This document shows positions 4,744 through 62,944 of a stretch of DNA of 64,000 bases, piece after piece. The notes under the pieces were generated by a model that did no database searches, was not told the origin of the DNA, and saw only the letters and a list, made by a program, of their open reading frames with translations. This DNA is from Squalus acanthias. Its lineage: Eukaryota. The stretch lies in contig JASTWF010000334.1 of assembly GCA_030390025.1 (NCBI GenBank), forward strand, positions 310,001 to 374,000, given 5' to 3'. Made by a program: the position numbers and the translations under genes. Each line of letters opens with the position of its first letter. Positions within the stretch are counted from its first letter, which is position 1.

Positions 4744-4821
4744 GATGGGTGATTCCCTGGATCCTTAGTTCCGAGTTCGTCCAAAAAGTTTGAGTGCGAA
4801 GTTTTTCAAAGTTGATTAAAT

Positions 4822-5015: not shown

Positions 5016-5458
5016 AGGATTATCAAGAACACAGATTGAGGATTATCAGGGACACAGATTGAGGATTATCAGGGACGCATTTTGAGGATTAGCAGGGGCA
5101 CTGAGGATAGGATGTGAAAGCAAAATACTGCAGATGTTGGAAATCTGAAATAAAACAGAAAATCCTGGAAATACTCAGCAGGTCAGGGAGCGTCTGTGGA
5201 GAGAGAAACAGAGTTAACGTTTCAGGCTGATGAGCAATCATCAGTACTGGAGAAAGCTGTAACACGTTTTAAGCAGTACAGAGGCAGCGAAAGTGGGGGA
5301 GTGGAGGAAGAGGGGAGTGCGCCACAGGGATCAGTGCTGGGACTTTAACTATTTACAAGCTATATTAATGACTTGGTTTAAGGGACCGAGTGCACTGTCG
5401 CCAAATTTGCAGATGATACAAAGATAGGTGGGAATGCAAGTTGTGAGGAGGACACAAA

Positions 5459-6224
5459 GGTCCGTATTTTCCGATCCCTACGGATGTGTATGAGCTATGT
5501 ACACACCCGTACGGGCCTCGCAAGTGCCGGTTTCAGGCATGTGAAGCACATGCGCTGAAAACCAGCACTTCCAATCTGTCATGAATCCTCTTGCCAGATT
5601 GCACGCCTGCCCAGGAGAAGGGCCTCTGCGGGTGGAGAGTTCCGCTTTCTGCACAACCTCCGCCCACTGACAACCTTTATAAATCTTACGCCTGGTAAAA
5701 TCGGGCATAAGGCCTACTTTTACCAGCATAAGAGTTTAAAAAAGTTTAAAAAAAAATTTCACTCATTTATAATTTAAAAATACTTTTAAAAAAGGTAAGT
5801 TTATTTTTTAACCCCGTAAAATACTTTAATTATTTTTTCAAAAAATTAAATTTTTGTTTAAAATATTTAATTTAATTTAATGTTAACTAATTTTAATTAT
5901 GTGATGTCTTTTTTAATTGATTTAATGTTTTAGTGTGTTTTTTGAGTGATCCCCATTCATACTTTTGATAAATCTACACTTAGAGACCTGTCAAAAGTGT
6001 GAAGGGGGATTCCCTTCTTCCATTGGCTCTCCATGGCCCATGTGATCCCAGGGACGCTTGTGAATGGCCTGCACCCCTGGGATACCTGGGCCTCTGCGCA
6101 TTTCGTCGTGGAGAGGCCCAGGAGCGGAAGTGTCGAGACCACCGGAGCCACCAGGTAAGGCGTAGATTTTTTCCAGATCGGAGGCATCCGCAGGCAGGAA
6201 GTCTCCGATCGGAAAATACGGGCC
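5459..6224. mobile_element. PIF/Harbinger-type MITE
   Basis: 18-bp TIRs GGTCCGTATTTTCCGATC / GATCGGAAAATACGGGCC; 3-bp TSD AAA; AT-rich core; related to 61618-62378. Confidence 0.85.
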
Positions 6225-10331: not shown

Positions 10332-10757
10332 CTGAGGATTATCAGGGCCACAGATTGAGGATTATCAGGGACACAGATTGAGGATTATCAGGGACACAGA
10401 TTGAGGATTATCAGGGACACAGATTGAGGATTATCAGGGACACAGATTGAGGATTATCAGGGACACAGATTGAGGATTATCAGGGGCACAGATTGAGGAT
10501 TATCAGGGACACAGATTGAGGATTATCAGGGGCACAGATTGAGGATTATCAGGGAAAAATATTGAAGATTATCAGGGCAGTGATTGAAGATTGTCAGGGA
10601 CACAGATTGAGGATTATTAGGGGAAAATATTGAAGATTATCAGGGCAGTGATTGAAGATTATCAGGGCCACAGATTGAGGATTATCCGAGGAAAATATTG
10701 AAGATTATGAGGGCAGTGATTGAAGATGATCAGGGCTACAGATTGAGGATTATCAGG
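10332..10757 (+). repeat. 23-bp minisatellite, further block
   Basis: Same unit as 1-534, degenerating towards the 3' end. Confidence 0.9.
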
Positions 10758-13623: not shown

Positions 13624-13703
13624 CTAACTACAGGCCAGTTTGTAGGAGCAAACGAAAGGATGTTGTTGATCACAGGGCACATCATTCCAAAGACCTCGAG
13701 TAG
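13624..13703 (-). CDS. Lectin A coding exon 5
   Basis: Acceptor TTTCTTTCTCCAG; encodes PTRGLWNDVPCDQQHPFVCSYKLACS-stop (WND motif). Confidence 0.92.
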
Positions 13704-16700: not shown

Positions 16701-19700
16701 GTTACACCCAGTGTACGTTCCTCTATCTGCAGTGTGTGACCCGTGTTCATTCCTCCATTAAACAGCTTTACTTGGAAGGTGGCTGCAAAAGATGCAGAAG
16801 TTGAGCCCTGCCAAAGTCTAAAACTCAACCACACTGAGTCCAGTTAGAAGCTCATTAATCTCAGTCGACCTATCCAGTCGTCTGCATTTAATTTCCAATA
16901 AAAACACTGTCACACTTTGCAGCATCAACTTACGGTAATTTAAATGCAGACAGTCCTCTATTCCTTGAGCATTATTGGGTTCACCCGTACCCCAGTTTGT
17001 AAAATCTGTTTCCGATCCATCAGTCCAAAGGAAAGCCTCCTCCTGTGGAAATATAAAATCATAATTTAAACATGTATATTTCTGTTACAATAAACAATTT
17101 GTGATATAACTTCTCAGACAACGTTACCTTGTAGATGTCACTCAAACCGAGCCAAGTATAAGGATTTGATGCGTCTTTTGCTTGAATCACCCGTTCGAAT
17201 GAACTCGTTCTGTTCCTGCGAGTGTATGGAGGCAAGACGGCCGCCTGGAGCCAGTGCTCGGCAGTGCAGCTTTAAATAAAAATAAAACAGACCATTTGTT
17301 GTTTTTCACCTTGTTACATTGATTATATTCAGTTCTGTCGCTCCATGTAATATGTTTAATGTTGAAACATTCTATTCTTTTGCTAAAGGTGAACAATAAA
17401 ACATACAACCTGCTGTTATAAGTCCATGTCGTCCCAATATGGACTGACTCCAAACTTCACTGTGGATTAAGTGAATAGTGGGACGCTGGCACTGGATACT
17501 GGGGAACAATCTCATGGGGGTTCAATGGCTTCAAACCACCAGATTGAAGTTTCAGCAGCTTCTGTGCATCAGCTGACACTGGGCTGGTATTGTGGTCGAA
17601 TGTTCTGTGGGCTATCTGGCATTGTTTCCCCTCTTCTCCCCAACCTTTATCCATACAGCTGCTGTCAATACAGATGTTGCAGTCCACATCACTGCAAAGT
17701 GACCACGCCCACACTGACAGATTTATCTGGCCATCCTGTGCCATGTGGGAAGTCCAGGATGCTTCTCGTGTCCTGGACAACCACATGAGCAGGAAGTGTC
17801 GTCAGCTGGAGGAGCTCGAGCTCCGGGTTTCAGAGCTTGAGCAGCGGCTGGCGTCACTGCAGTGCGTCCGTGAGGCTGAGAGCTATGTGGATAACACGTT
17901 TCAGGAGGTGGTCACCCTGCAGCTTAAGAGTTAGCAGGCAGAGAGTTAATGGGTGACGGACAGACAGACAAGGAGGACCAGGCAGGTAGTGCAGGAGTCC
18001 CCTGAGTGCCTCATTTGATGATCCTTCTAACATATTGTCCCTCCTCACAGCTGTAATTGTTAATTTAACCAAAATTGCGTCCAGTCCCCGCCCCACCCCC
18101 CGTCCTTTTATATTCACCTTTAGAACTCGTTGGAAAACCCTGTAATCAGGAATGTTGAGCTACCATTCCTACTCTCCTTTCAGCCATGTTTCAGTAATAG
18201 CTATGATATCATACTTCCACACGTTTATCTGGTGAATACTGGTGAGAGTGATGGTTCCTCTGGGGAGTACAGCCAGAGCACCATAGGTGGCTCAGCTGTA
18301 TGGCGGGGAGTGGGTGGAGGAGGATGATCAGAAAAGCAATAGTGATGGGGGATTCATTAGTTAGGGGAACAGACAGGCGTTTCTGCACCGCAGACGTGAT
18401 TCCAGGATGGTATGTTGCCTCCTTGGTCAAGGATGTCACTGAGTGGCTGCAGGACATTCTGAGGGGGGAGGGCGAACAGCCAGAGGTCGTAGTCCATATC
18501 GGTACCAATGACGGAGGAGGCGGACCTGTGTGGGAGCGGCAGCGGGACCTGAGAGAAGGCGGAGCGGCCATAAAAGAGCGTGGCAGAGGAGGCCCGACAC
18601 CGGAGTGCTGCAAGTTGGGAAAGAGTCCCGAGAGCGGGAGCAATCAAACAACAACAACTTCGAAACCACTAAAGTGACATCACAACCAGGGAAGGAGCTG
18701 ATTGGTAAGTAGGACCTGGTGAGTATTTCTACAGTCCAGTCATTGAAGTAAAAGTAAGGTTTCTAGTTTAGAGTAAGTAGTGTTTAAAGGGAAGTAAGGT
18801 CCCTAGTGTATTTAATATTCTTTAATTTAAAGGAAGTAAAGGAAGTAAGTTAAGGGTAGGACATGGCAGGGCAGCTCGGCAGCATGGAGTGCTCCTCCTG
18901 TGCTATGTTGGAAGTCAGGGACACTTTTGGTGTCCAGGACGAACACATGTGCAGGAAGTGTCTCCAGCTGCAGGTACTCGAAATCCGCGTTTCGGAGCTG
19001 GAGCTGCGGCTGGAGTCACTGTGGAGCATCCGCGAAGCTGAGATCTTCGTGGATAGCACGTTTAACGAGGTGGTCACACCGCAGGTGAAGAGTGCACAGG
19101 CAGACAGGGAATGGGTGACTGCCAGACAGAGTAAAAGAACTAGGAAGGTAGTGCAGGAGTCCCCTGGGTCCATCTCCCTCTCCAACAGATTTTCCGTTTT
19201 GGATACTGCTGGGGGAGATGGTTTCTCAGGGGAATGCAGCAAGAGCCAAGTCCGTGGCACTATGAGTGGCTTAGCTGCATAGGAGGGGAGGAAAAAGAGT
19301 GGGAGAGCAAAAGTGATAGGGGATTCTATCTTAAGGGGAACAGATAGACATTTCTGTGGCCACAGACGTGACTCCAGGATGGTATGTTGCCTCCCTGGTG
19401 CCAGGGTCAAGGATGTCACTGAACGGCTGTAGGGCATTCTGAAGGGGGACGGCGAACAGTCAGAGGTCGTGGTTCACATTGGTATCAACGACGAGGGATG
19501 AGGTCCTGCAACAAGAATTTAAGGAGCTCGGTAGCAGATTAAAAAGCAGGACCTCAAAGGTTGTAATCTCTGGATTACTCCCTGTGCCACGTGCTAGTGA
19601 GTATAGGAATAGGAGGATAGAGCAGATGAATGTGTGGCTAAAGAGTTAGTGCAGGAGGGAGGGCTTTAGTTTCCTGGATCACTGGGTCTGCTTCTGGGGA

Positions 19701-34700: not shown

Positions 34701-37700
34701 GGAAATGTTGGTGTTCAGAAGGACCTGGCTTTCCTTGTACACGAATCACTGAAGGTTAACATGCAGGTACAGCAAGCAATTAGGAAAGTAAATGATATGT
34801 TAGCCTTTATTTCAAAAGGATTGGAGTGTAAGAGGAAAAAATTCTTAGTGCAATTATATAGGGCCTTGGTGAGACCACACCTGGAGTACTGTGTACAGTT
34901 TTGGTCTCCTTACCCAAGGTAGGACAGACTTGCCTTAGAGGGAGTACAAAGACTGATTCCTGCAATGGAGGGGATTGTCCTATGAGGAGAGATTGAGGAG
35001 ACTAGGCCTATATTCCCTAGAATTTAGAAGAATGAGAGGTGATCTCAATTAAACATATAAAATTCTTACAGGGCTTGACAGGGAGAATGTTTACCTTAGT
35101 TGGGAAGTCTTGAACTAAGGGTCACAGTCTCAGAATAAGGGATTCGCCATTTAGGACTGAGATGAGGAGAAATTTATTCACTCAAAGGGTTGTGAATCTT
35201 TGGAATTCTCTAACCCAGAGGTCTGTGGATGCACAGTCGTTGAGTATATTCAAAGCAGAGAGCGATAGATTTTTTTGGATATTAAGGGAATCAAGGGATA
35301 TGGAGACAGTGGGAAAATTGAGTTGAGGTAGAAGATCAGCCATGATTGTACTGAATGCCGGAGCAGGCTTGAAACGCCAAGTGGCTTACTCCTGCTCCTA
35401 TTTCTTATGTTCTCATGTTCTTATGTTCTTACAACCAGCCCTACAACCCTCGCGATCTCTGCACTCCCCCAATTCTGGCTTTTTGCACAACTGTGATTTT
35501 CACTGCTCAACCATTGGTGGCCGTGCCTTCAGCTGCCTTGGCCCAAGCTCTGTAATTCCCTCCCTAAACCTCTCTGACTCTCTTTACTCCTTCAAGCCAT
35601 TCCTTAAAACCTACATCATTGACCAAGCTTTTGGTCGCCTACCCTGGTGTAACTGGGTGGAGCCTGTACGATGCAAGCTCTGCCCATTTGTAGCTGAATT
35701 TTGCATGAGGGTCCTACAATCGGCGTAGGACCCGATTTGCATATTTAAGTAGGTTCAAGCCTGTTTCAGGCGGGCTGCTCGCCCATTTTCAGGCCGGGCT
35801 GAATATTGCGTCGGGTGGGCTTTGGGCATCAAAGGGGCGATCGAGGTGTCCTCCTACCGCCTGTTTCTTAAGTGCAAAATGGACAGGTGTGAGTTGACTT
35901 TCTCCCCCAATAAATTAAATTCCATTTTTATTTAATGACATTCTGGAATTTGTCCATTGTTCTGTGAAAGTTAAGTGAGTGGCCTTCATTTTTCTTTACC
36001 TATATTTTAACAGTTTTCGCATTATAAATGTTGACGTAAAGGAACAAGAAGTGCATACTATATACACGGTTTTAGTAATATATGGATCATTTCTTCCTTC
36101 AAATATTTAAAAGGGAATGTGTGGCCAACGTGCTCTCCTGAAAGTAGTAATACAAGTAGAATAAATATCATGGAAGTCCTAAACAGTCTAAAAGGGCTCA
36201 AAATAAATTAGCCCCAGGTATACAATTTATCTTGCTAATATCACATGGGGGAATTTAAATATTTAAATGCAAATAGATGAACATTGCCCAATAGGAAGGG
36301 AGCAAATGAATTGACCTGGGGAGACATTACAGACCCATTCAATGAAAGAGACCTGGGAAGACCATTCAATGTAAAACCAATAAACATTGGATGCATCTTG
36401 TCGGCTTTTGAAAATGTCTGAAATCTTAGCTGAACGGATACAGGTTTTTCACAACTATCTGCCCTTTCAATGGGCTGACAGCAGATCCTTTAAATGGACC
36501 TTGTCATCTTTGATCTGAAGAGCAGGATCTGGAGCCCAATCCTGTCCCCACCAAACTTCCACACAATGCATTTTGCAGAAGGTTTCACTGGATGGTGATC
36601 AGGACCAGGGAGTCGCGCTGATTTTACTCTTTTCTAATCCAGAGACACTCAGACCAGTTGTAACTCCCTCATCACTGTCCATGGATGAACCTGGGACCCT
36701 CCTTGTCTGTAGGGCTCATTGTCACAGTTCAGTGCCCTCAGTGTTTAATGTAGAATACAATGTAGACCATGTTACCCACTGATGGAACACACTGAGTCAA
36801 TCAGAACTGTCCAGATATAAACAAGAAGGTTCTTTCATTCTCTGTGTCTGGTCATATTTAGAAACACTGAGGAACAAAGCCAATAACTTAAAATGGAGAC
36901 TCCAGGGACTTACCTCAGCTTCTATCCAATTCTTTTTCTGAGGGACAAACTGGTAACAATAACCAAAATAAAATCTGCTGTTGAAACAATATCCGCTCCG
37001 AAGGACGTCACGTTTTTCAAGGTCCTGATCCTGATCCGTCTGTGTCTCCAGTTGCCCATTCTCCAATGTGCTACTCGGAGTATCAAAACCTGCAGTTAAA
37101 GGGAATTAGACTAAACAAGCTGCAATAGTCACAACAGCAATCCCCAAACCTTCAAAGCTTCTGATTTGTGAGGCTAGAAATTGATGGGCAGATGGTGGGC
37201 GGGGCCTGCACAGGGGGCGGGGCTTGCTCAGGGGTCATGGCTTTTCACCTTCCTGCACAAACCTGTCCTCACACACCATGTTTGTTTACATAGAATTATA
37301 TAGAAGTTACAGCACAGAATCAGGCCATTTGGTCCAACAAGTCAATGCCACAGGAGCCTCCTCCCTCTCTATTTACTTCCTCTAACTCTATCAGCATATC
37401 ATTCTATTCCTTTTCCCCTCATGTGCTTATCTAGCTTCACCTTAATGCATCTATGCTGTTCGCCTCAACTACTCCATATTGTAGCAAGTTCCAGATTCTC
37501 ACCACTCTCTGGGTAAAGAAGGTTCTCCTGAAATCCTTATTGGATTGATTGGTGACTATCTCATATTTATGACTCAAACTGGAATTTTTCATCAACTTTC
37601 CTTCAAATTTCCACACTTCCTTTGTCTTCACATGGTCCATTTCCGACTCTTCCCTTCCTTGGCTTCTCCATCTCCATTTCTGGGAATAGGCTGTCAACCA

Positions 37701-40700
37701 ATATCTATTATAAACCCACTGACTCACACATCTTTCCCCCCCTTTCCCTTTCAGCATTCCGAAAGGACCGTATCCTCACTACACATTGGTCCACTCTTTC
37801 ATCACTCTAGAAAGCTCCAAACACTTGCAGAAACGTACACAGAGCCAGTAGAAATTAACCAGCAACTAACCTGAAAGTGGTTGATGAGCCCTTTAAATAT
37901 CGCTGGTGGGGCTCCTTGCAGCAGCTGAACGCATGTTCAGCTCTGCGAGGTTAACACAGGGCGTTAGTTCCAGGATGACAATGGCAGTGCTGGTGTCAAA
38001 TCAGCGTGCAACGCTGATTGATGTCACAATCTGGTTACTCTACATACTTCTGGCGCCGCTCCCAATGCCGCGCTAACGCTGTCACCAAGGTGGCATCCGG
38101 TGCGGCCCACACCAGAATTGTGCGTGCGCGCGGCTCGGACACCATTTCAACCAAAAGTGGCACCCGTAGCGCCCAAACAACGAGAGCTATGCAATTGAAT
38201 TTTTATGTCCTAGACTACCCAACCAACGGAAATAGTTTTTATCTACCCTATCAGTTCTTCTTAATATCTTCAAAACTTCGATCAAATCAGCCCTTAATCT
38301 TCTAAATTCCAGGGAATACAGCCTAAGTTTGTCTAATCTCCCGTCGTAATTTAACCCTTGGAGTGCACGTATCACTCTGGTACATCTACAATGCACTCCC
38401 TCCAAGACTAATACATCCTTCCTATGGTGTGGTGCCCAGAACTGAACACAGTACTGCAGGTGTGGTCTAACCAGGGCTTTGTATCGATGTAGCATAACTT
38501 CTACCCCCTTGTGGCTGCTGTGTTTCCGACATTACAACAGTGACTGGACTTCAAAAAGTACTAGCCCGCTTCTACCTCCTTCCCAAGATCCACAAACAGG
38601 ACTGCCCTGGTAGACCCATCGTTTCAGCCTGCTCTTGCCCCACAGAACTTATCTCTTCCTATCTCGACTCTATTTTTTCTCCCCTTGTCCAGTCTCTTCC
38701 CACCTACATCCGCGATTCCTCTGACGCCCTCCGCCACTTTAACAGTTTCCAGTTTCCTGGCCCCAACCGCCTCCTTTTCACCATGGACGTACAATCCCTC
38801 TACACCTCCATCCCCCACCAGGATGGCCTGAGGGCGCTCCGCTTCTTCCTTGAACAGAGGCCCAACCAGTCCCCATCCACCGCCACCCTCCTCCGCCTGG
38901 CTGAACTTGTTCTCACATTAAACAACTTCTCCTTTGACTCCACTCATTTCCTCCAAATCAAAGGTGTTGCTATGGGTACCCGCATGGGTCCTAGCTATGC
39001 CTGCCTTTTCGTGGGATATGTGGAACACTCTTTGTTCCAGTCCTACTCGGGTCCCCTCCCTCACCTCTTTTTCTGGTACATTGACGACTGTATCGGTGCC
39101 GTTTCCTGCTCTCGCCCTGAACTAGACAATTTCATTCACTTTGCCTCCAATTTCCACCCTTCCCTCACCTTCACATGGTCCATCTCCGACTCTTCCCTTC
39201 CCTTCCTCGACTTCTCCGTCTCCATCTCTGGGGATAGGTTATTGACCAACATTCACTACAAGCCCACTGACTCCCACAGCTACCTGGACTACACTTCCTC
39301 CCACCCCGCCTCCTGTAAGGACTCTATTCCCTTCTCCCAGTTTCTCCGTCTCCGCCGTATCTGCTCCAACGATGCCACCTTCCATACCAGTGCTTCCGAC
39401 ATGTCTTCCTTTTTCCTCAACCGAGGATTCCCCTCTACCGTGGTCGACACGGCCCTCGACCGTGTCCGTTCTATCTCCCGCACTTCTGCCCTCACACCGG
39501 CCCCTCCCTCCCTCCCGGAACCACGATAGAGTTCCCCTTGTCCTCACCTTTCACCCCACCAGCCTCCACATTCAACGGATCATCCTCCGCCATTTCCGCC
39601 ACCTCCAACGTGATCCCACCACCAAACGTATCTTCCCCTTACCTCCCCTTTCAGCATTCCGTAGGGACCGTTCCCTCCGAGACACCTTAGTCCACTCCTC
39701 TATCACCCCCAGCACCCCTTCCCCCTCACCCGGCACCTTCCCGTGCAAGCGCAGGAGATGCAACACCTGCCCTTATACATCCCCCCTTCCCACTCTCCAG
39801 GGCCCCAAACACCCCTTCCAGGTGAAACAGCGATTTACTTGCACTTCTTGCAATCTAATATACTGTATTCGCTGCTCACGATGTGGTCTCCTCTACATTG
39901 GGGAGACCAAACGCAGATTGGGTGACCGCTTTGCGGAACACCTCCGTTCAGTCCGTAAGGGTGACCCCGAGCTTCCGGTCGCTTGTCATTTTAATTCACC
40001 CCTCCATTCCCACTCAGACCTCACCGTCCTCGGCCTCGTGCATTGTTCCACGGAAGCTCAACGTAAGCTCGAGGAACAGCACCTCATCTTTCGTTTAGGC
40101 ACTTTACAGCCTTCCGGACTCAATATCGAGTTCAACAATTTCAGATCATAACCTCGGCCCCTACCACATATGTATACATTTTATCCACCCTTTTGGTTCG
40201 TGCCTTTTTCCTTTTTTTTCTCTCTCTCCCCCTACAGCAGCTGTCTCTCATTCTGTCAGCATTTCACACCTCACCTTTTGTTTCTTAACCTGTCTCTACT
40301 TACCATAGTTATTCCTCACCCCAGCCTCCCCCTTGCATTTTTATCTGTTTCATTTCCTGCTCTATTCTCAATTCTGACGACGGGTTGTGACCTGAAACGT
40401 TAACTCTGCTCCTCTCTCCACGGATGTTGCCTGGCCTGCTGAGTTTTTCCAGCGTTTTCTGTTGTTGTTTCGAAAAGTACCACATTGGCTGTAAAGCGCT
40501 TTGGGACGTCTGGTGATTGTGAAAGGCGCTATATAAAGGCAAGACTTTCTTTCTTTCTTCTTTCTATTCTAGTCCTCTAGATATAAAGGCCAACATTCCA
40601 TGTGCCTATTTGATTATTTTCTGTACCTGATCATGACATTTTTACAATATGTACATGAACCCCTAAGTTTATTTGGACCTCTACTGTTTCTAAATTTTTA

Positions 40701-43012
40701 CCATATGGAAAGTTAATTGGATATAAGACACTATATCGCCCCCAAGCCCACGGAAAGACAATGGGTTATTAGACACTATCCCGCCCCCTGGGGTTATTAG
40801 AAACTATCACCACCCCGCCCCCGGGTTTATTAGACACTATCACCACCCCGCCCCCGGGTTTATTAGACACTATCACCCCCCCACCCCCGGGGTTATTAGA
40901 CACTATCCCCGCTCCCCCCCCGGGGTTATTAGACACTATCCCCCCCCCCCCCCCCCGAGGTTATTAGACACTATCCCCCACCCCCGGGGTTATTAGACAC
41001 TATCCCCCCCCCCCCCCCCGGGGTTATTAGACACTATCCCCTCCCCCCCCCCCCGGGGTTATTAGACACTATCCCCCCCCCCCCCCGGGGTTATTAGACA
41101 CTATCCCCCCCCCCCGGGGTTATTAGACACTATCCCCCCCCCCCCCCCCCGGGGTTATTAGACACTATCCCCCCCCCGGGGTTATTAGACACTATCCCCC
41201 CCCCCCGGGGTTATTAGACACTATCCCCCCCCCCCCCCCCGGGGTTATTAGACACTATCCCCCCCCCCGGGGTTATTAGACACTATCCCCCCCCCCCCCG
41301 TGGTTATTAGACACTATCCCCCCCCCCGGGGTTATTAGACACTATCCCCCCCCCCCCCCGGGGTTATTAGACACTATCCCCCCCCCCGGGGTTATTAGAC
41401 ACTATCCCCCCCCCCCGGGGTTATTAGACACTATCCCCCCCCCCCCCGTGGTTATTAGACACTATCCCCCCCCCCCCCGGGGTTATTAGACACTATCCCC
41501 CCCCCCCCCCCGGGGTTATTAGACACTATCCCCCCCCCCCGGGGTTATTAGACACTATCCCCCCCCCCCCGGGGTTATTAGACACTATCCCCCCCCCCCC
41601 CGGGGTTATTAGACACTATCCCCCCCCCCCCCCCCGGGGTTATTAGACACTATCCCCCCCCCCCGGGGTTATTAGACACTATCCCCCCCCCCCCCCCGGG
41701 GTTATTAGACACTATCCCCCCCCCCCCCCCCCCGGGGTTATTAGACACTATCCCCCCCCCCCGGGGTTATTAGACACTATCCCCCCTCCCCAATGGTTTA
41801 CTCAGCTGAGCCGTGAATGAAATCCTCTCGAGTGAGCTCAACGCCAAGTGAGGAATTCACTGGATCATTTTCTGTTGGCCGGTGTGATGTTAACGAGCGG
41901 CACAAATTAATAATAAACTATGTCCCCAAATTGGCGCAGCCTCCCGACACATTCCAGCTTTAACTGAACAGGATCTGGACACAGGATCCGGGTCCACCAG
42001 GGGTGGGGATTCCAGGCCAGAGGAGCAGGCTGGACCCCCGAAGATCGAACAGTGGGGGTGAAGGATACACAAGAATGTTTGTTTATGAGAAGGAAGTGGG
42101 CGAACCCATGAGCAGGTGAGTGAGATTAGACTGGGTGCTTTAATAAAGGGTATGGGGAGTGAGCAGGAGAGTGGGATTAGACTGGTCGGGATAATAAAGT
42201 GTATGGGGAGTGAGCAGGTGAGTGAGATTAGACTGGTTGCTTTAATAAAGGGTATGGGGAGTGAGCAGGAGTGGGAGTAGACTGGTTGGGATAATGAAGG
42301 GTATGGGGAGTGAGCAGGAGAGTGGGATTAGACTGGTTGAGATAATAAAGTGTATGGGGAGTGAGCAGGAGAGTGAGATTAGACTGGTTGTGATAATAAA
42401 GGATATCGGGAGTGAGCAGGAGAGTGAGATTAGACTGGCTGGGACATTAAAGAGTATGGGGATTGAGCAGTAGTGTGGAATTGGACTGGGTGGATATTAA
42501 AGGGTATGGGGAGTTGAGCAGGAGACTGGGCTTAGACTGGCTGGAATATTAAAGGGTATGGGAAGTGAATAGGTGAGTGGGATTAGATTGTGTGGGATAT
42601 TAAAGGGTACGGGGAGTGAGCCGGAGAGTGGGATTGGAATAGGTGAGAGACTGAAAGTTATGGGATGTTCGCAGGAGAGTTTGATTAGAATGGGTGGGAT
42701 ATTTGAGGGTATGAAGAGTGACCAGGAGAGTGAGATTAGCTTGGGTGGGCTATTAAGGAGTATGGGGAGTGGGCAGAGAATGGAATTGGACTGGGTAGAA
42801 TATCAAAGCTTTGCAAAGTTAGATAGTTGCCCATTTTAGGATATTCCTTCAGGTGCCACCCCTTTCTATTCCCTCTAATTTAGACAGCAGGTAATCCACG
42901 AACTTTCCACCTCACAGCATTAACCTGTCCTCACACACCATGTCTGGTTGACCCTACCTGCCACATCACTGACGAGCAATGCACTCAGCACCAAAACCGT
43001 CACCAGCATCAT
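13624..43012 (-). CDS. Secreted prepro C-type lectin gene A (REG/ladderlectin-like single CTLD); coding exons 43012-42958, 37089-36914, 17269-17128, 17042-16934, 13703-13624; 186 aa if the +1 frameshift is corrected
   Basis: All introns GT-AG with compatible phases. Product: MMLVTVLVLSALLVSDVAG-FDTPSSTLENGQLETQTDQDQDLEKR-DVLRSGYCFNSRFYFGYCYQFVPQKKNWIEAELHCRALAPGGRLASIHSQEQNEFIRT/VIQAKDASNPYTWLGLSDIYKEEAFLWTDGSETDFTNWGTGEPNNAQGIEDCLHLNYPTRGLWNDVPCDQQHPFVCSYKLACS. Confidence 0.9.
13798..15444. mobile_element. Degenerate Harbinger derivative in the last intron of lectin A
   Basis: TSD TCA; Myb/SANT-like relic on + (INAAWLHIAQE...RRTRLQWHKPFNDL). Confidence 0.7.
16038..16735 (+). repeat. 33-bp minisatellite (CAGTGTTACACCCAGTGTACGTTCCTCTATCGA)n, about 21 copies
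   Basis: Tandem unit read directly; explains the repetitive 11-aa ORFs. Confidence 0.95.
16934..17042 (-). CDS. Lectin A coding exon 4
   Basis: CAG|EEAFLWTDGSETDFTNWGTGEPNNAQGIEDCLHLNY|GTAAGT; EPN sugar-binding motif. Confidence 0.92.
17128..17269 (-). pseudogene. Lectin A coding exon 3 with a +1 frameshift
   Basis: 142 bp between phase-0 sites (141 expected); LHC...LASIHS in one frame and WLGLSD in the next; CCC run at 17190-17192. Confidence 0.85.
21228..22154 (+). CDS. CR1 ORF1p: zinc finger, coiled coil, SGNH esterase
   Basis: CSSC...CGKC; LRVRELELEL-type heptad region; IVIGDS; HIGTND; DGLH. Confidence 0.92.
   Translation: MAGEAVKCSSCRMFEVRDAVGVPADYTCGKCTHLQLLENRVRELELELDELRIIREAEEVIDRSFRDVITPKHEDRWVTVRGARRKQSVQGSSVVVPLSNRYTALNTVEGDDLPVVSHGDRISGAGSVPVAQKGRGESRRAIVIGDSIVRGTDRRFCGSKRDSRMVCCLPGARVHDVSDRVFRILKGEGEQSQVVVHIGTNDIGRRRDGDLKQEFRELGWKLRASTNHVVISGLLPVPRASELRNRERVQINTWLQGWCRGEGFSYVDNWSTFWGRWDLYKQDGLHLNQRGTNILGGKFATALRGGLN
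22155..25051 (+). pseudogene. CR1 ORF2p (APE endonuclease + RT), open except one TGA at 22340-22342
   Basis: YFNARNI...ITETW, GDFN, SDHN; PQGSVLGP, FADD; 899 aa open downstream of the stop. Confidence 0.9.
29010..29518 (+). mobile_element. L2-type LINE 3' fragment
   Basis: Ends AAAGGCGCTATATAAAT...GTTGTTG; related pieces at ~33600-33735 and ~35430-35640. Confidence 0.65.
31440..32129 (+). mobile_element. 3' fragment of the second LINE family, inserted within an antisense copy of the same family
   Basis: ORF EYSPFAW...IQDKAARLI...HSLHHRR; A-rich tail; minus-strand tail pieces at ~31388-31436 and ~32130-32198. Confidence 0.75.
32202..32869. mobile_element. Harbinger-derived MITE
   Basis: TIRs GGGGGAAAAATT / AATTTTTCCCCC; TSD TAT. 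Confidence 0.88.
36914..37089 (-). CDS. Lectin A coding exon 2 (propeptide and start of the CTLD)
   Basis: CTGCAG|...DQDQDLEKR...C...GYCYQF...KNWIEAE|GTAAGT. Confidence 0.92.
37290..38510 (-). mobile_element. CR1, Penelope and Harbinger-end fragments in lectin A intron 1
   Basis: CR1 3' region on the minus strand; 37580-37810 resembles the Penelope ORF; ~37860-38210 resembles 57930-58200 inverted. Confidence 0.65.
38562..40472 (+). mobile_element. 5'-truncated Penelope-like element (RT + GIY-YIG), one frameshift near 39500
   Basis: GVAMG, YIDD; NLIYCIRCSRCGLLYIGET; 8-bp TSD AAAAGTAC (38554-38561, 40473-40480) within an L2-tailed fragment. Confidence 0.93.
40370..40405 (+). ncRNA. Minimal hammerhead ribozyme motif (slightly degenerate)
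   Basis: CTGACGA-c-GGGT-tgtg-ACCT-GAAACGTT-AACT. Confidence 0.6.
40765..41790 (-). repeat. G-run minisatellite (GATAGTGTCTAATAACCCC-Gn), left-arm copy
   Basis: Roughly 30-35 units with variable C-runs on +. Confidence 0.95.
42108..42797 (+). repeat. 51-bp diverged minisatellite, about 13 copies
   Basis: Unit GGGAGTGAGCAGGAGAGTGGGATTAGACTGGTCGGGATAATAAAGTGTATG. Confidence 0.9.
42958..43012 (-). CDS. Lectin A coding exon 1 (signal peptide)
   Basis: Exon starts at 43040 after TTTCAG; MMLVTVLVLSALLVSDVA|GTAGGG. Confidence 0.9.
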
Positions 43013-43118
43013 GTCTGCAGTGAAGTTCCTTTCCTCTCACCTGAAACACAAGGAAAAGATTCAACATTAGTGTCAAGATTTCAAATTAAAGATTGGGATT
43101 TCCTGCTCCCATTCCTAC

Positions 43119-43264
43119 CTCTCTTTCTCTCCCAGTTGTCTGATGTGATGAGGTTTCGAGTGTCACTGCATATATACATCGCAGATTGTGGAGACCTTTG
43201 GAACCATTGAAATCAGATCCAATTGGCTGGACCATCAATGATCTCAAAATTACTGCTGGCCAAT
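43119..43264 (-). promoter_or_regulatory. Lectin A promoter and short non-coding first exon
   Basis: TATA-like 43170-43176; CCAAT 43260-43264; donor GAG|GTAGGA at 43119; same layout in copy B. Confidence 0.65.
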
Positions 43265-44079
43265 CAGTGACTGGCAGCTCAGAACAGGAGGGACTGGAAA
43301 CCACTGGAATGTTTTGTGAGCGACACATGAGATTGTACAACGTGGCACTGTAACTGCTCACTGAGAAATGGAAACTGCAGTCACGCTTCCTGACCCAGTG
43401 ATCAGCCTGTTAGGGAATGCATTTATGATATTAGGATTTAATGATTATTATCAATGAGAACATTTAGGATTGGGTGACCATTGTATTGAGGTGAAATCCC
43501 CCAAATAAAGAGATAATATAAAAACATGAGAATTTTTATATAGAACAATCCAATCCCTTTTGTAATAGATCTGAACCCCATCTATTCCCCATTTCTCACC
43601 ATGGCAGAAGGTCTCCTTCATGCACTGGCTGCAGTGAGATTGTAATCTGTTTGTAAAAAACAGGGTCAATTTGGAATCATTGGCACCTTTCAAAAAGGAG
43701 CTGGATCGATGTCTGTTCAGAAGGGGGATTGAGGGATGGAGAGATAACGGAACTGCTTGATGTTTTTCCAGGGACAGAACAGCGCATTCCCTAAACCAAC
43801 AGCTGGTGTGGGCGGGAGTCCATGATGGAATTATGAGACCTGAACAATGAATGGAGTGGGATTGATGGGCTGAATGACCTTTTCTCACTCCACATTCTCT
43901 CCTGTTCCAATGAATGGGTTTACATTTTCACCGCACCCAGTACACAGATCAGATCCTTCCACATATCCCTCAATCACTTCTCACTCCATAGACACAACGA
44001 ACGGCCATTAGGTCCATCAATCCCACTCCATTCAAGGTCCAGGTCTCATTATTTCATTATGGGCTCCCTCCCACAACAG

Positions 44080-45234: not shown

Positions 45235-45761
45235 CAGCTGTTGGCTTAGAGAATGCTCTGTTCAGTCCCTGGAAAACAATGAATGAGTTCTATTATCTCC
45301 CCATCCTTCAATCCCCCTTCTGAACAGACATCAATCCAGTGCCAATGATTCCCAATTGGTTCTTTACAAACAGATTACAATCTCACTGCAGCCAGTGCAT
45401 GAAGGAGAACTTCTGCCATGGTGAGAAATGGGGGAATAGATGGGGTTCAGATCTATTACAAAAGGGATTGGCTTCTTCCGTATAAAAATTCTCATGTTTT
45501 TGTGAGTATTATCCCTTTATTTTTGGGGTCTTTACTTCAATATAATTGTCACCAAATCCTAAATGTTCTCATTGATAATATTCAGTAAATCCAAATATCA
45601 TAAATGCATTCACTTACAGGCTGATCACTGGGTCAGGAACTGTGACTGCAGTTTCCATTTCTCAGTGAGCAGTTACAGTGCCACGTTGTACAATCTCATG
45701 TGTAGCTCACAAAACATTCCAGTGGTTTCCAGTCCCTCCTGTTCTGAGCTGCCAGTCACTG

Positions 45762-45911
45762 ATTGGCCAGCAGTAATTTTGACATAATTTATTATCCAGC
45801 CATTTAGATCTGATTTCAATGGTTCCAAAGGTCTCCACGATCTGCGATTTATATATATGCAGTAGCACTCGAAACCTCATCACATCAGACAACTAGGAGA
45901 GAGAAAAAGAG
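45762..45911 (+). promoter_or_regulatory. Lectin B promoter and short non-coding first exon
   Basis: ATTGG 45762-45766; TTTATATATAT 45848-45858; donor GAG|GTAGGA at 45911. Confidence 0.65.
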
Positions 45912-46017
45912 GTAGGAATGGGAGCAGGAAATCCCACTCTTTAATTTGAAGCCTTGACACTAACATTGAATCTTTTCCTTGTGTTTCAGGTTAGAGGAAA
46001 GGAACTTCACTGCAGAC

Positions 46018-46072
46018 ATGATGCTGGTGACGGTTTTGGTGCTGAGTGCATTGCTCGTCAGTAATGTGGCAG
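46018..46072 (+). CDS. Lectin B coding exon 1 (signal peptide)
   Basis: MMLVTVLVLSALLVSNVA|GTAGGG; 1 nt different from copy A. Confidence 0.9.
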
Positions 46073-46165
46073 GTAGGGCCAACCAGACATGACGTGTGAG
46101 GACAGGTTAATGCTGTGAGGTGAAGAGTTAATGGATTACCCGCTGTGTAAATTAGAGGGAACAGA

Positions 46166-49640: not shown

Positions 49641-49854
49641 ATTCTTTGGCCTGGGTACCCACCTGTCATGGGCCTGGATCCTGTGGAGTGTGTCGGGAGG
49701 CTGTGCCAATTTGGGGAGATAGTTTATTGTTAATTTGTGCCTTCAGTTACTATCACACCAACCAATAGAAACTGATCCAGTGAATTCCTCACTTGGCGTT
49801 GGGTGAGTTCACTGAAGAGGATTTCACTCACTGATCAGCTGATTAAACGGCTGG

Positions 49855-51787
49855 GGGTGGGGGCGCGATAGTGTCTAATAACCCCGGGGGGGGGGGGGGG
49901 TGGTGGGATAGTGTCTAATAACCCCGGGGGGGGGGGGGATAGTGTCTAATAAACCGGGGAGGTGGGGGGGGATAGTGTCTAATAACCCCGGGGAGGGGAT
50001 ACAGTGTCTAATAACCCGGGGGGGGGGGGGGGGATAGTGTCTAATAACCCCGGGGAGGGGGGGGGGATAGTGTCTAATAACCCCGGGGGGGGGGGGGGAT
50101 AGTGTCTAATAACCCCGGGGGGGGGGGGATAGTGTCTAATAACCCCGGGGGGGGGGGGGGGGGGGATAGTGTCTAATAACCCCGGGGGGGGGGGATAGTG
50201 TCTAATAACCCCGGGGAGGGGGAACAGTGTCTAATAACCCGGGGGGGGGGGGGGGGGATAGCGTCTAATAAACCGGGGAGGTGGGGGGGGATAGTGTCTA
50301 ATAACCCGGTGGGGGGGGGGGGGGATAGTGTCTAATAACCCGGTGGGGGGGGGGGGGATAGTGTCTAATAACCCCGGGGGGGGGGGGTGGGATAGTGTCT
50401 AATAACCCGGTGGGGGGGGGGGGATAGTTTCTAATAACCCGGGGAGGTGGGGGGGTTAGTGTCTAATAACCCCGGGGGGGGGGGGGGGATAGTGTCTAAT
50501 AACCCCGGGGGGGGAGGCGGGATAGTGTCTAATAACCCCGGGGGGGGGGGGGATAGTGTCTAATAACCCCGGGGGGGGAGGGGGGGGGATAGTGTCTAAT
50601 AACCCCGGGGGGGAGGGGGGGGGATAGTGTCTAATAACCCCGGGGGGGGGGGGGAGGATAGTGTCTAATAACCCCGGGGGGGTGATAGTGTCTTATAACC
50701 CGGGGGGGGGGGGGATAGTGTCTAATAACCCCGGGGGGGGTGGGGGATAGTGTCTAATAACCCGGGGGGGGTGGGGGATAGTGTCTAATAACCCTGGGGG
50801 AGGGGGGGGGGGATAGTGTCTAATAACCCCGGGGGAGGGGGGGGTAGTGTCTAATACCCCGGGGGATAGTGTCTAATAACCCCGGGGGGGGGGATAGTGT
50901 CTTATAACCCGGGGGGGGGGGGGGGGGAGTGATAGTGTCTAATAACCCCGGGAGGAGGGGGGGGGGGGAGAGTGTCTAATAACCCCGGGGGGTGGGGGGG
51001 GGATAGTGTCTAATAACCCGGGGGATAGTGTCTAATAACCCCGGGGGGGGGGGGGGGATAGTTTCTAATAACCCCGGGGGAGGGGGGGGGGAGAGTGTCT
51101 AATAACCCCGGGGGGTGGGGGGGGATAGTGTCTAATAACCCCGGGGGAGGGGGGGGGGGTAGTGTCTAATAACCCGGGGGGGGTGGGGGGGATAGTGTCT
51201 AATAACCCCGGGGGATGGGGGGGGGATAGTGTCTAATAACCCCGGGGGGTGGGGGGGGGATAGTGTCTAATAACCCCGGGGGGGGGGAGGTAGTGTCTAA
51301 TAACCCCGGGGGAGGGGGGGGGGAGAGAGTGTCTAATAACCCCGGGATAGGGATAGTGTCTAATAACCCCGGGGGGTGGGGGGGGGGGATAGTGTCTAAT
51401 AACCCCGGGGGGTGGGGGGGGATAGTGTCTAATAACCCCGGGGGGGGAGGTAGTGTCTAATAACCCCGGGGAGGGGGGGGGGGGAGAGAGTGTCTAATAA
51501 CCCCGGGGGGTGGGGGGGGATAGTGTCTAATAACCCCGGGGGGTGGGGGGGGGATAGTGTCTAATAACCCCGGGGGGGGTGGGGGATAGTGTCTATTAAC
51601 CCTGGGGGAGGGGGGGGGTAGTGTCTAATAACCCCGGGGGAGGGGGGATAGTGTCTAATAACCCCGGGGGGTGGGGGAGGGGGGGGGATAGTGTCTAATA
51701 ACCCCGGGGGAGGGGGGGGGATAGTGTCTAATAACCCCGGGGGAGGGGGGGGGTAGTGTCTAATAACTCCGGGGAGGGGATAGTGTT
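49855..51787 (+). repeat. G-run minisatellite, right-arm copy (about 60 units)
   Basis: Reverse complement of the unit at 40765-41790. Confidence 0.95.
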
Positions 51788-55567: not shown

Positions 55568-57564
55568 CTACTTTTTGCCCTTCGAGGGTGATCTCCTTCC
55601 CTTGCGCACTTCCCCCCTTCTAACCCTACTGCTCCTCCGTAATGGGACCTCAGTGGCTGCAGCAAGGCTGGTGGAAGGCTGCTGCTTGTCAGACCCTGAC
55701 ACTGCAGATGCCCCTGAAGGACGGCCTCGACCACTTCTGGGCCTGGAGGGCCCGGCTGCAGACTGCACCAACTCTGCATGGGCGGCAGCAGTCTGTCCTA
55801 CAGGCGGTGGCAAGTGCAGTGGAGAAGTGACAGTGTTGGCAGCAGGAATGCTGTCATCGTGAGAGAGGACAGCAACTCCCTGCTCGCCCGACACACTGGC
55901 ACTCCCACGGGGCAGCACTTCAGCATCCGGAGCAATTTGCCGGAGAACAGATTGCTGGCCTGCTGCGGCGCGGTGACAGCCCCGGGGACATGTGCACGAA
56001 CCATCGAGGATGGCAGCAGTCAGTGCTCGCGTGGCCTCAATCTGAGTCTGCATGAGAGCAGTCTCAGATGGGTTCCTGGCAGCCAGTGACTGAATTGCAG
56101 CACTAAGCTTTAGTGTGGCATCCGCCTGTGCTACAGCGAAGTGCTCCACACTCCTTGCCAGTGCCTCAATGCATTCGGGCACCCTTCCCACTGCACCCAT
56201 GAGCTCAGTGTGCATGCCCACCGCCTGGCAGTTCATTTCTGCAATCAGCCGCTCCTCCTCTGCGTCCATTGCATTAGGAGTGTCTGGCATACTCTCCCTC
56301 TGGGGAGAAGGCTCCCGTTCTTCCCTCCCCCCCCCATGGCGTGGCTGCAGCCCGCTGGGTCCTGCAGCTTCACCATCATCAGCCCCTTCCCCCCTGCTCC
56401 CCCGTTCTTCCCTCCCCCCCCAATGGCGTTGCTGCAGCCCGCTGGGTCCTGGAGCTTCACCATCATCAGCCCCTTCCCCCCTGCTCCCCCGTTCTTCCCT
56501 CCCCCCCCAATGGCGTTGCTGCAGCCCGCTGGGTCCTGGAGCTTCACCATCATCAGCCCCTTCCCCCCTGCTCCCCTCCGGGGAAGGCGTGTTCCCAGTG
56601 TGGCCATGGGCTTCCTCGGGAGAGGGTGGCACTGATGCTCCGGCTTCCTCTTCCTCCTCAGCTGCAGCATCACTCCCAGTGGCAGCTTCAGGGACCATCT
56701 CCTCAGCTGGTGAATCACCATCTGAAAGCAGGGAGGTACAAGAGTGGCTTTAGCGTGAGGACAGGGTGGCAGTAAGGGAGGAATAAGTGCAGCGAGTTAG
56801 CAAGTTGGATTGAAAGTGTCAAAGGCTGGTATTGTGAGGGACAAGTGGAAGGACAGAGGACAAAAAGGTGATGACCTTACCATTGCTGTCCACAACGGGG
56901 TCGGCGTCCCCAGTGGCGACGGGACCGATCACCCGGCTTGCCACAATCCTGTGGACGCGCTCCTCCAGATCGCTGAGGGATTGCAGCTGAAGCCGCCCTC
57001 CACCCGTCCGTTGCTGCTGTCTCCGATTATGAGCCAGCTTAGCCTGCAAGAAAAAGGACAGCATCTGAGTAAATATACAGCCATGGTCTTGCCTGATGTG
57101 CCTCCCATAGGTGAATAGCCCTTACAATATGCAGCCATGGTCTTGCCTGATGTGCCTCCCATAGGTGAATAGCCCTTACTGTATGCAAAGTGTGGAATGT
57201 GTGTGTGTGTTTGATGAAAGGGCCATAGGTGTTGCATGAGTGTTGTGCATTGGGGTTTTAAGACCCTCTGGCCATATAGTGAGGTTGAGATGGAGGGATG
57301 GAGAGGTATTGAGAAAAAGCCACTCACCCTGACGACCCAAGTGAGGTCATTGAATTTTTTGCGGCACTGAACATGGGTCCTGGGCACCATGCTCCTGGAG
57401 GAGACGCTCTGAGCCACCTCCCTCCACACTCTTCTGAACTCGCGTGGCAAAGGCCTCCTGCCACTCTCCGGGAACAGCATGCATCGTCTGCGCTCCACTG
57501 CGTCAACCAGAGCATCCAAGGCCCGCTCGGTGAAGCGATGAGCGCGTTCTCTCACCCTCTCCAT
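55568..57564 (-). CDS. Harbinger Myb/SANT-like DNA-binding protein; exons 57564-57328, 57043-56881, 56721-55568; 517 aa, uninterrupted
   Basis: RFTERALDALV...W..VA...RT..QCRKKFNDL; GT-AG introns in phases 0 and 1 give one open frame. Confidence 0.85.
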
Positions 57565-60621: not shown

Positions 60622-61409
60622 TATTGATAGTTTACCAGGTCAGAATCCGTTGTAGAATGACTTCCAGCACCTGTTCCAGCCACAATACACCTGCCCTTTA
60701 AGAAGTGCAGGCTGGCTTTAACTGGTGCTAGCCTCTCATGATTTTGGGCCCCCTGCTGATGCGTGCAGCCAATCAACAGCGAGGTTAGCGCTAGCTGCTG
60801 GCAGAAGTCATGTAAATGAGCAGGCAGCACAAAGTTGGCGTGTTGCCTGCATTACATTGAACGGGCGTGGGTTAATCACGCATCACGATCCCCATGCTCG
60901 TTTTTGGGGGCTATCGAATTTAGCCCCTGGTGCCTTGCGCTAAATGTAGGCTAAACCCATCTGAATGCGCTACCAAAAATTGCCCCCAAAGATTAATAAG
61001 TGTAAATAAGACTTCTAGTGGCAGAAGGGTCAGTAACCAGAGGACACAGATTTTAGTTAATTGGCAAAAGAGCCAGAGGGGAGATGAGGAGATTTTTTTT
61101 TTACACAGTGAGTTGTTATGATCTGGAATGCATTGCCTGAAAGGGCGGTGGAAGCAGATTCAATAACTTTCAAAAGGGAATTGGATAAATATTTGAAAAG
61201 CTGAAATTTGCAGGGTTATGGAGAAAGGGCAGGGGGAGTGGGACTAATTGGAAAGCTCTTTCAAAGAGCTGGCACAGGCATAATGGGCTGAATGGTCTCC
61301 TTCTGTGCTGTATCATTCCATGATTCTATGACGCCTTGAATCAGAAATAAACAGTGAATGTTTGGGGATTGTTCTGTGATTATTGCCGCTTGTTTCCCTT
61401 TAATTGCAG

Positions 61410-61585
61410 CTCACGTTGCCCTGAATAGAGCATTGGAGAACGGACAACCAGAGACAGAGACTGATCAGGATCAGGACCTTGAAAAACGTGGCGTCTTTGG
61501 GAGAGGATCTTGTTCCGACGGCTGGTTTTATCTTGGTTATTGTTACCAGTAACTCTCTATGAGAAAGAATTGGATATATGCTGTG
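61410..61585 (+). pseudogene. Lectin B coding exon 2 with a premature TAA (61550-61552); remaining exons lie beyond the window or are lost
   Basis: TTGCAG|AHVALNRALENGQPETETDQDQDLEKRGVFGRGSCSDGWFYLGYCYQ*LSMRKNWIYAV|GTAAGT; 176 bp, same as copy A. Confidence 0.88.
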
Positions 61586-61617
61586 GTAAGTCCCTGGAGT
61601 CTCCATACTAAGATATT

Positions 61618-62378
61618 GGCCCTGAAATTCGCCTCTCTGGCTTGCCGCGGGGGTAAGGATCGCGCGCGCACTTACCTACCGCGCCTGCCGTTGACCTCTG
61701 GGCCCACGGGGACTTCAGCTCCTGGGCCTGCTCCAAGTGCCGGCGCGCAGTGCTTGCATGTCCCAGGGGCGTAGTTAGTGCGATGCGTACCCTGGGATCA
61801 CGTGGGCCATGGAGAGCCAATGGCAGCAGACCATCTTTCATTCACAGATTTGACAGGACCTGTCAAATCTATGAATTGAAATGGGCCCCAAAAGAACAGC
61901 TAAACCTCAAATAAATTTTAAAAAACCATCACATTTATAAAATAACTATAGGTTAAATAAATTAACTACTTTAAACAAAAATTAAAATTTTTGAAAAAAT
62001 TAAAAAACTTTTTAACAGTGCTAAAAATAAACTTACCTTTCTTTAAAGTATCTAAAAAAGATAAACCTGTTGAAATTTTTTTCAAATTATAATTAATTTA
62101 CCACTTACCTTGTTGAAAACAGGTCCTGCGCCTCCTTTCTAAAAGTGCAGGTTCTTCAATACTTACCCTCCCGTAGAAACCTGAAAAAAAACCTAAGTTT
62201 GCTGCGTGCGCGCAGCCTCTACTGCACACGCGGTTCACCTATGAACCGCTCCCTTCACCAGAGCGGAAGTTCTGGTTTCCCGCGCATGCGCAGTGCATGC
62301 AGGAAACCGGCACTTCAGGACGCCTTACGGGTGAGTACACAGTGCGTACTCACCCGGCAAGGGCCGAATTTTTGGCCC
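61618..62378. mobile_element. Harbinger-type MITE 32 bp after the lectin B exon 2 donor
   Basis: TSD ATT; the empty site is visible in copy A (~36880); same family as 5459-6224, opposite orientation. Confidence 0.85.
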
Positions 62379-62944
62379 ATTGGGTTTGTTACTCATTGTT
62401 TCTAAATATGACGGGACGCAGAGAATGAAAGAACCTTCTTTTTTATATCTGGACAGTTCTGATTGACTCAGTGTGTTCCATCAGTGGGTAACATGGTCTA
62501 CATTGTATTCTACATTAAACACTGAGGGCACTGAACTGTGACATTGAGCCCTGCAGACAAGGAGGGTCCCAGGTTCATCCATGGACAGTGATGAGGGAGT
62601 TACAACTGGTCTGACTGTCTCTGGATTAGAAAAGAGTAAAATCAGCACGACTCCCTGATCCTGATCACCATCCAGTGAAACCTTCTGCAAAATGCATTGT
62701 GTGGAAGTTTGGTGGGGACAGGTTTGGGCTCCAGATCCTGCTCTTCAGATCAAAGATGACAAGGTCCATTTAAAGGATCTGCTGTCAGCCCATTGAAAGG
62801 GCAGATAGTGTGAAAAACCTGTAACCGTTCAGCTAAGTTTTCAGACATTTTCAAAAGCCTTCAAGATGTACCTAAGCTTTGGTTAGTCTTGTTGACTGGG
62901 AATTTATATTGAATGGATGCCCCAGGTCACTTTCACTGAATGGT

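Follow-up and report, generated by a model that had tools for sequence, protein, structure and literature searches.

The introns of snake venom PLA2 genes are reportedly more conserved than their exons, an observation said to come from a paper of 1993. Related patterns have been described elsewhere. Snake venom families (CTLP, PLA2, SP and MP) have grown by tandem duplication and show KA/KS above 1 in their venom copies (PMC6062510), conotoxins underwent accelerated evolution after duplication (PMC3862624), and the same comparison of KA/KS with intron KN has been applied to snake serum proteins (PMC7150969). Accelerated evolution also diversified the sugar specificity of congerins I and II, secreted skin proteins of the conger (PMC3269628) which, as galectins and as a two-gene case, differ from the genes described here. 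For the red and green opsins, a model in which selection acts in the presence of gene conversion yields a peak of divergence at the selected exon and low divergence in the flanking introns (PMC3924837).

Here we describe a family of secreted C-type lectins, each with a single lectin domain, that has expanded in the shark Squalus acanthias, and we consider it probable that diversifying selection and gene conversion have shaped it together. The accelerated-evolution pattern itself is already known and this family is an added case, a cartilaginous-fish, non-snake instance of the venom-gene pattern in which signal and UTR are conserved and the mature domain evolves fast. Unlike the snake venom genes, the shark genes have a KR propeptide, combine EPN and QPD types in one cluster and include mosaics of two subfamilies; a venom role is conceivable. 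Whereas the opsins are a two-gene pair with few key residues, the shark family numbers thirty copies, with many sites under selection and with chimeras among its genes, and this number of paralogues in one genome suffices to part selection from conversion. A literature search that covered openly accessible listings and the openings of abstracts showed no study of how these genes expanded or came under selection.

Among named proteins, the closest are shark models labelled 'lectin-like' that carry PF00059. Such elasmobranch models (Cal-, LmsL- and lectoxin-like; e.g. Heterodontus francisci P0030 and P0032) have a signal, an acidic propeptide, often KR, and a single lectin domain, and occur in several copies per shark genome; their names record an automatic likeness to snake lectins, not a function. 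In a protein tree limited to shark, ray, chimaera, amphibian and teleost rows, homologues clustered largely by shark order, and P0030 grouped with one plus-gene relative from the S. acanthias genome and one Rhincodon row (SH-aLRT 96). The difference lies in 14 genes of the FDT subfamily defined below, which formed a clade holding rows of this genome only (SH-aLRT 98). A broad-specificity C-type lectin from the skin of the Japanese bullhead shark, Heterodontus japonicus, is cited in PMC10707392 and may be a further member.

The window genes and their family

The window, a stretch of 64,000 nt (G000:C2606:310001-374000) from a genome of 3.7 Gb, contains two five-exon lectin genes in head-to-head orientation. 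Their products consist of a signal peptide, an acidic propeptide with KR at its end and a single C-type lectin domain. All five exons of the minus-strand gene lie inside the window: the nearest upstream signal exon (42958..43012, -), exon 2 (36914..37089, -), exon 3 (17128..17269, -), exon 4 with an EPN motif (16934..17042, -) and the coding part of exon 5 with a WND motif and the stop (13624..13703, -). The plus-strand gene is only partly inside. Its signal-peptide coding exon (46018..46072, +) and its exon 2 (61410..61585, +), which encodes the propeptide, the KR site (61484-61489, +) and the start of the lectin domain, are in the window, and exons 3-5 follow outside it at G000:C2606:403242, 417341 and 429413. 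Judged by their sequences, both genes look disabled. Exon 2 of the plus gene has an in-frame TAA stop at 61550-61552 (+), and exon 3 of the minus gene is apparently frameshifted, because it measures 142 nt in the assembly and is out of frame, compared with 141 nt in 27 of the 28 other genes that have an exon 3.

An exon-2 search of the genome returned 35 matches, 30 of which were copies of the exon, on five contigs. Thirty genes is a lower bound, although some of those located on unplaced contigs could be haplotypes. Defects affect 8 of these 30 genes. The exon-2 tree divided the family at bootstrap 100 into the subfamilies FDT (18 genes, including the minus copy) and HVALN (12 genes, 11 of them in the tree, including the plus copy). 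This split is old, since the exon-2 peptide of the plus gene is nearer to a Heterodontus francisci protein (42/58 residues) than to the neighbouring minus copy (32/58); its age depends on the distance between the two shark species.

Several features identify the lectin domain. The PF00059 profile matched the full-length shark relative P0030 at E 1.5e-17 and exon 3 of paralogue L033 at 23.3 bits (cut-off 22.6). Lone exon 4 pieces scored 17 bits, under the cut-off, as did exon 4 of the minus gene when taken alone (Pfam Lectin_C E 0.0085, under the gathering cut-off). The window's exon 2 by itself gave no match to the profile, and a homologue search by exon 2 alone gave none. All 20 intact mature domains contain 6-8 cysteines, W(I/L/F/V)G is present in 27/27 in-frame exon 3 rows, and WND in 17 of the 20 intact genes, which divide into 10 with EPN, 8 with QPD, 1 with QPN and 1 with neither. 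EPN is the mannose type of such motifs and QPD the galactose type. By the motifs EPN/QPD and WND, the family is predicted to belong to the calcium-dependent sugar-binding CTLDs; QPD is called galactose-specific in PMC9316650. Both EPN and QPD types were found in both subfamilies, a hint of short segment exchange at exon 4.

The best single-domain relatives of solved structure, found with query P0004, included the snake galactose-specific lectin 1jzn and BJcuL (5f2q), at E ~2e-26, and weaker matches in the structure database included REG4, lithostathine and PAP1. In zymogen-type lectins such as REG3 and major basic protein, a lectin fold follows an acidic N-terminal piece. We rejected as unlikely a cationic zymogen lectin of this REG3/MBP-like kind, one whose membrane-killing activity is masked by charge, as the propeptides carry a charge of -2 to -6 and the mature domains one of -8 to +1, without basic character.

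Baselines and mosaicism in the window pair

A sequence-only reading of this stretch had proposed diversifying selection from the finding that exon 2 of the two genes differs about nine times more than the adjacent intron. Recounting reproduced each of its figures: 38/176 nt differ between 61410-61585 and the reverse complement of 36914-37089, 5/210 between intron pieces 36573-36782 and 62481-62690, and, for the two signal exons (42958-43012, -; 46018-46072, +), 1/55; past the KR site 17/32 codons differ, and all 17 are replacements, one of them a stop. The counts are exact, but the size of the contrast falls to ~2.8 over all non-coding DNA of the pair (127/1670 = 7.6%) and to ~1.6 against its other introns (Fisher p 0.016), whose alignable pieces differ at 75/551 positions (13.6%). 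The ninefold ratio was inflated because the 210-nt piece is the best-conserved intron stretch. It lies in the start of intron 2 (62379..62943, +, in the plus gene, homologous to 36335..36884, -, in the minus gene), which is 91.7% identical over 566 columns with 30 mismatches. Within intron 2, the initial 480 nt show 16/479 differences versus the 75/551 of the other introns (p 2e-9). The block adjoining the 210-nt piece shows 24/541, the DNA upstream 33/464 and the 3' UTR 3/176. The signal-exon figure of 1/55 compares two 5' modules of the same type, inverted head-to-head copies at 42865-43805 and 45235-46165 that are 89.6% identical over 951 columns, and the signal exon is conserved across the whole family. 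These same-type modules, the two old subfamilies and the apparent breakage of the second copy had all been overlooked in the sequence-only reading. The contrast sets an old between-subfamily exon against the least diverged intron piece, and it arises mostly from the piece chosen and from exchange of DNA among copies. More generally, baseline choice and mosaicism can inflate a pairwise exon/intron ratio ~threefold.

That positive selection on exon 2 alone drove it apart ninefold faster than a neutral intron is very improbable for this pair, and the baseline counts largely refute it. The part after KR has pN 0.25 and pS 0.048, the latter near the 0.033 of the intron-2 start, as this explanation would have it, and the mature part of exon 2 is under selection family-wide (2dL 15.6, p 4e-4). 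Set against this are the 13.6% divergence of the other introns and the exon part before KR, skipped in the earlier comparison, where 6 of 15.9 synonymous sites differ (pS 0.38) and which belongs to a whole exon with pN 0.21 and pS 0.19. The absence of any purely synonymous codon past KR has a neutral probability of 0.035-0.086, and it is not typical of between-subfamily pairs either: over 112 such pairs of intact genes, the post-KR part has pS 0.30 and pN 0.30. Moreover, both copies look broken and are mosaic, and their exons 3-5 are more diverged (88/326) than exon 2.

Both window genes are mosaics of FDT and HVALN. In the minus gene, 5.9 kb separate the signal exon from exon 2; the distance is ~1.0 kb in the rest of the FDT genes that have a signal exon, 16 in number. 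Its FDT-type intron 1 (37090..37805, -) loses homology to two FDT paralogues at ~37805, the junction with an HVALN-type 5' part, and the DNA upstream of its signal exon clusters with HVALN genes in a tree (bootstrap 100). A tree of the intron-2 start does not separate the subfamilies. Position 37290, considered as a leftover of the original signal-exon junction, was rejected on finding the same internal repeat in the FDT gene at C2606:51 kb.

Set beside the sister gene at C2606:172 kb, exon 2 of the plus gene has differences at 1/137 of its first nucleotides and at 13/39 of its last. Over an approximate tract at 61547..62730 (+), made up of these last 39 nt and ~370 alignable nt of intron 2, the plus copy is closer to the minus copy than to the sister. 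Of the informative sites inside the tract, 21 link the plus copy to the minus copy and 6 to the sister, compared with 6 and 104 outside it, a score matched in 0/300 permutations. Either direction of exchange is possible, and part of this signal is change in the sister, because it is the sister that stands apart at 8 of 14 intronic sites linking plus to minus copy and Heterodontus proteins have the same Met and Ile as the plus copy's tract. The exon codons of the tract are also under family-wide selection. The minus neighbour is no more than a candidate donor, two other FDT genes being equally close over the last 39 nt; one exon site in the tract is common only to the plus copy, the minus neighbour and one other gene. 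A very recent duplication from the 172-kb gene is only partly true of the plus copy, since the blocks are 85-97% identical. Further along its intron 2, outside the window at C2606:383940-384480 (L107/L108), the plus gene holds a 541-nt FDT-type piece comprising the end of intron 2 and ~80 nt of the start of exon 3. Its identity is 91.5-94.8% to the FDT genes, 18 in all, and no higher than 86%, over <190 nt, to 11 HVALN genes; a search near the sister gene gave no match of this type.

Gene conversion is the mechanism we infer for the mosaics. The sequence-only reading had offered conversion and mosaicism as an alternative to selection; the discordant exon, intron and upstream trees and the tract test bear this out, and it explains much of the contrast within the pair. 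Discordant genealogies of exon and flank, together with exchange tracts, are the mark of selection under conversion, and both are found in the lectin family. The ~180 nt of 3' UTR past the stop at 13624 (-), compared with the same region in paralogues of both subfamilies, have diverged by ~2% (0.022-0.027), far less than the introns, and the low divergence of the intron-2 start and the 3' UTR could reflect constraint instead of conversion.

Selection across the paralogues

We wrote GY94 site models for this analysis (M0 likelihood -3319.92, compared with -3319.96 from IQ-TREE), in which branch lengths were rescaled only and sites were called by naive empirical Bayes. From the 30 genes, the 8 with defects and 2 without a retrieved exon 5 were dropped, leaving a 20-gene set; per-exon models used 20-22 genes. 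For the lectin domain of the 20 intact genes (137 codons), the codon-model dN/dS came out above 1, with an M0 omega of 1.73 and 35% of sites at 4.7 under M2a. The 2dL values were 145.7 (M1a/M2a), 149.6 (M7/M8) and 144.7 (M8a/M8). Diversifying selection is thus upheld at the level of the family, mainly in exons 3-5, and is not shown by the pair and the exon from which it had been proposed. When each exon was given its own tree, the four exons of the lectin domain were all significant (2dL 15.6, 42.4, 30.2 and 34.3; joint 115.8), the signal being weakest in exon 2 and strongest in exons 3-5; per-exon trees gave no selection excess for the signal exon (omega 0.48) or the propeptide (1.01). The result was kept without 3 near-duplicates, under three codon-frequency models and within each subfamily (2dL 94 and 27).

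Could conversion tracts, relaxed constraint and pseudogene decay suffice, with no selection at all? Eight of the 30 genes have defects, mosaics are common, and three changes unique to the plus copy fall in EAE codons that are otherwise kept. Heavy conversion can also produce false positives: 2dL reached a maximum of 37.7, and omega one of 0.78, in a set of 14 neutral simulations of which 10 included 20-80 conversion tracts. The observed 2dL is ~four times this simulated maximum, and the structural residues are conserved. In addition, intact FDT genes show pN at twice pS without any tree (14 genes, exons 3-5: pN 0.151, pS 0.071; pN<=pS in 0/2000 bootstraps), which neutral or relaxed evolution cannot achieve. 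We therefore regard an explanation without selection as very improbable. Codons of the FDT genes with single-base variants include 113 replacement and 19 silent changes (p 0.002). The tree-free excess was slight in the post-KR part of exon 2 of FDT genes (pN 0.079, pS 0.067; p 0.36), and pN/pS was weak, at 1.05-1.3, among HVALN genes and between subfamilies.

For exons 3-5 of 11 FDT genes, 3 others with an intron deletion having been dropped from this comparison, tree dN was 0.61-0.92 and dS 0.22-0.36, compared with 0.10-0.26 for well-covered non-coding DNA. The exon excess over typical introns in these 11 genes is therefore real, ~three- to sixfold, and carried by replacements. Synonymous divergence also exceeded intron divergence, even inside FDT, where dS was 1.5-2 times the well-covered intron tree lengths, and exon 4 had a tree dS of 2.07 versus ~0.95 for the remaining exons of the lectin domain. 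The raised dS may stem from a local effect on the mutation rate. Taken further, the exons might be locally hypermutable, or the introns and UTRs constrained, with selection merely acting as a filter, comparable to conotoxin exons; error-prone replication has been proposed for the mature exons of conotoxins (PMC3862624). The raised FDT dS, its doubling in exon 4 and the ~2% divergence of the 3' UTR family-wide agree with such an account. Yet a higher mutation rate would raise dN and dS alike and leave omega at <=1, the signal exon and propeptide show no excess, and hitchhiking near selected codons under conversion predicts the same kind of dS excess (PMC3924837). We judge this account unlikely.

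Sites under selection include three residues before EPN/QPD, four shortly after it and several past WND; the Cys, Trp and motif positions themselves are not selected. The selected positions flanking EPN/QPD and WND, placed by reference to these motifs, presumably line the sugar site, as is established for lectins. Selection and conversion are partners rather than rivals here. Under the joint action of the two that we favor, the family evolves by duplication and loss, and positive selection, as the codon models show, alters residues near the calcium/sugar site, with the frame of cysteines, WIG, WND and EPN/QPD kept. Ectopic exchange would keep stretches of non-coding DNA similar between the subfamilies and yield the mosaics, and selection opposing exchange at exons would leave peaks of divergence that include synonymous sites and exon flanks. 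The KR site may be cut by a dibasic-site protease, and the likely function would be a glycan-recognition repertoire against microbes or parasites.

A more specific version is doubtful when all of its parts are taken together. It holds that a repertoire of KR-processed secreted lectins has been diversified by sugar-site selection and by swaps of short exon-4 loop segments with broken copies as donors, and that this repertoire, serving innate glycan recognition or skin, spine or reproductive secretion, has expanded separately in each shark order. The repertoire reading fits because exon-4 dS is doubled, EPN and QPD are mixed in both subfamilies and clades are order-specific. The family is a target for work on shark innate immunity or secretion, and the sites under selection predict that its members differ in glycan specificity.

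Reads and repeats in the window

A 276-nt contig from run X1, possibly the assembly's own source, spans 61355-61630, taking in both the stop and the diverged 3' end of the plus copy's exon, with one differing letter, at 61430. We rejected an assembly error as the cause of the stop as unlikely, since the X1 contig carries it, with the qualification that X1 may be the assembly source. A contig from run X2 over 61517-61637 also has one differing letter. At 61430, three DNA-like runs carry A, at the full depth listed, in place of the assembly's G. No other position among the 137 nt that open exon 2 sets the plus copy apart from the sister gene, and the mismatch is either an allele or an assembly slip. 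In a contig from run X8, the signal exon of one family member is directly followed by its exon 2; that X8 is RNA is a guess, as no run is recorded as RNA and none has a tissue label.

Beside the 5' module of the minus gene lies an 80-nt inverted repeat (43803-43882 and 44000-44079). Four head-to-head pairs of signal exons, spaced 3-5 kb apart, occur along C2606 (at 151.7/154.7, 236.7/239.7, 353.0/356.0 and 525.8/530.5 kb), and a common two-way control region is possible for them. A minisatellite with a period of ~29-33 and with runs of poly-C/poly-G occurs twice, in opposite orientations, at 40763-41791 and 49853-51786; it sits in intron 1 of both window genes and of the sister gene. Tandem arrays with periods of 23, 33, 51 and 87 occupy 1-538, 5016-5104, 10333-10757, 16039-16735, 42109-42796 and 56314-56576. 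Long open frames of up to 902 aa at 792-4764 (-), 22343-25051 (+) and 38498-40151 (+) are probably retrotransposon remnants, and those from 22343 onward fall within repeated DNA. Finally, an insertion of ~760 nt in intron 2 of the plus gene (61620..62378), related to 5750-6057, has short imperfect inverted ends and a very high copy number (summed contig depth 2e5-2e6, versus tens to hundreds for the exon), and looks like a non-autonomous DNA transposon.
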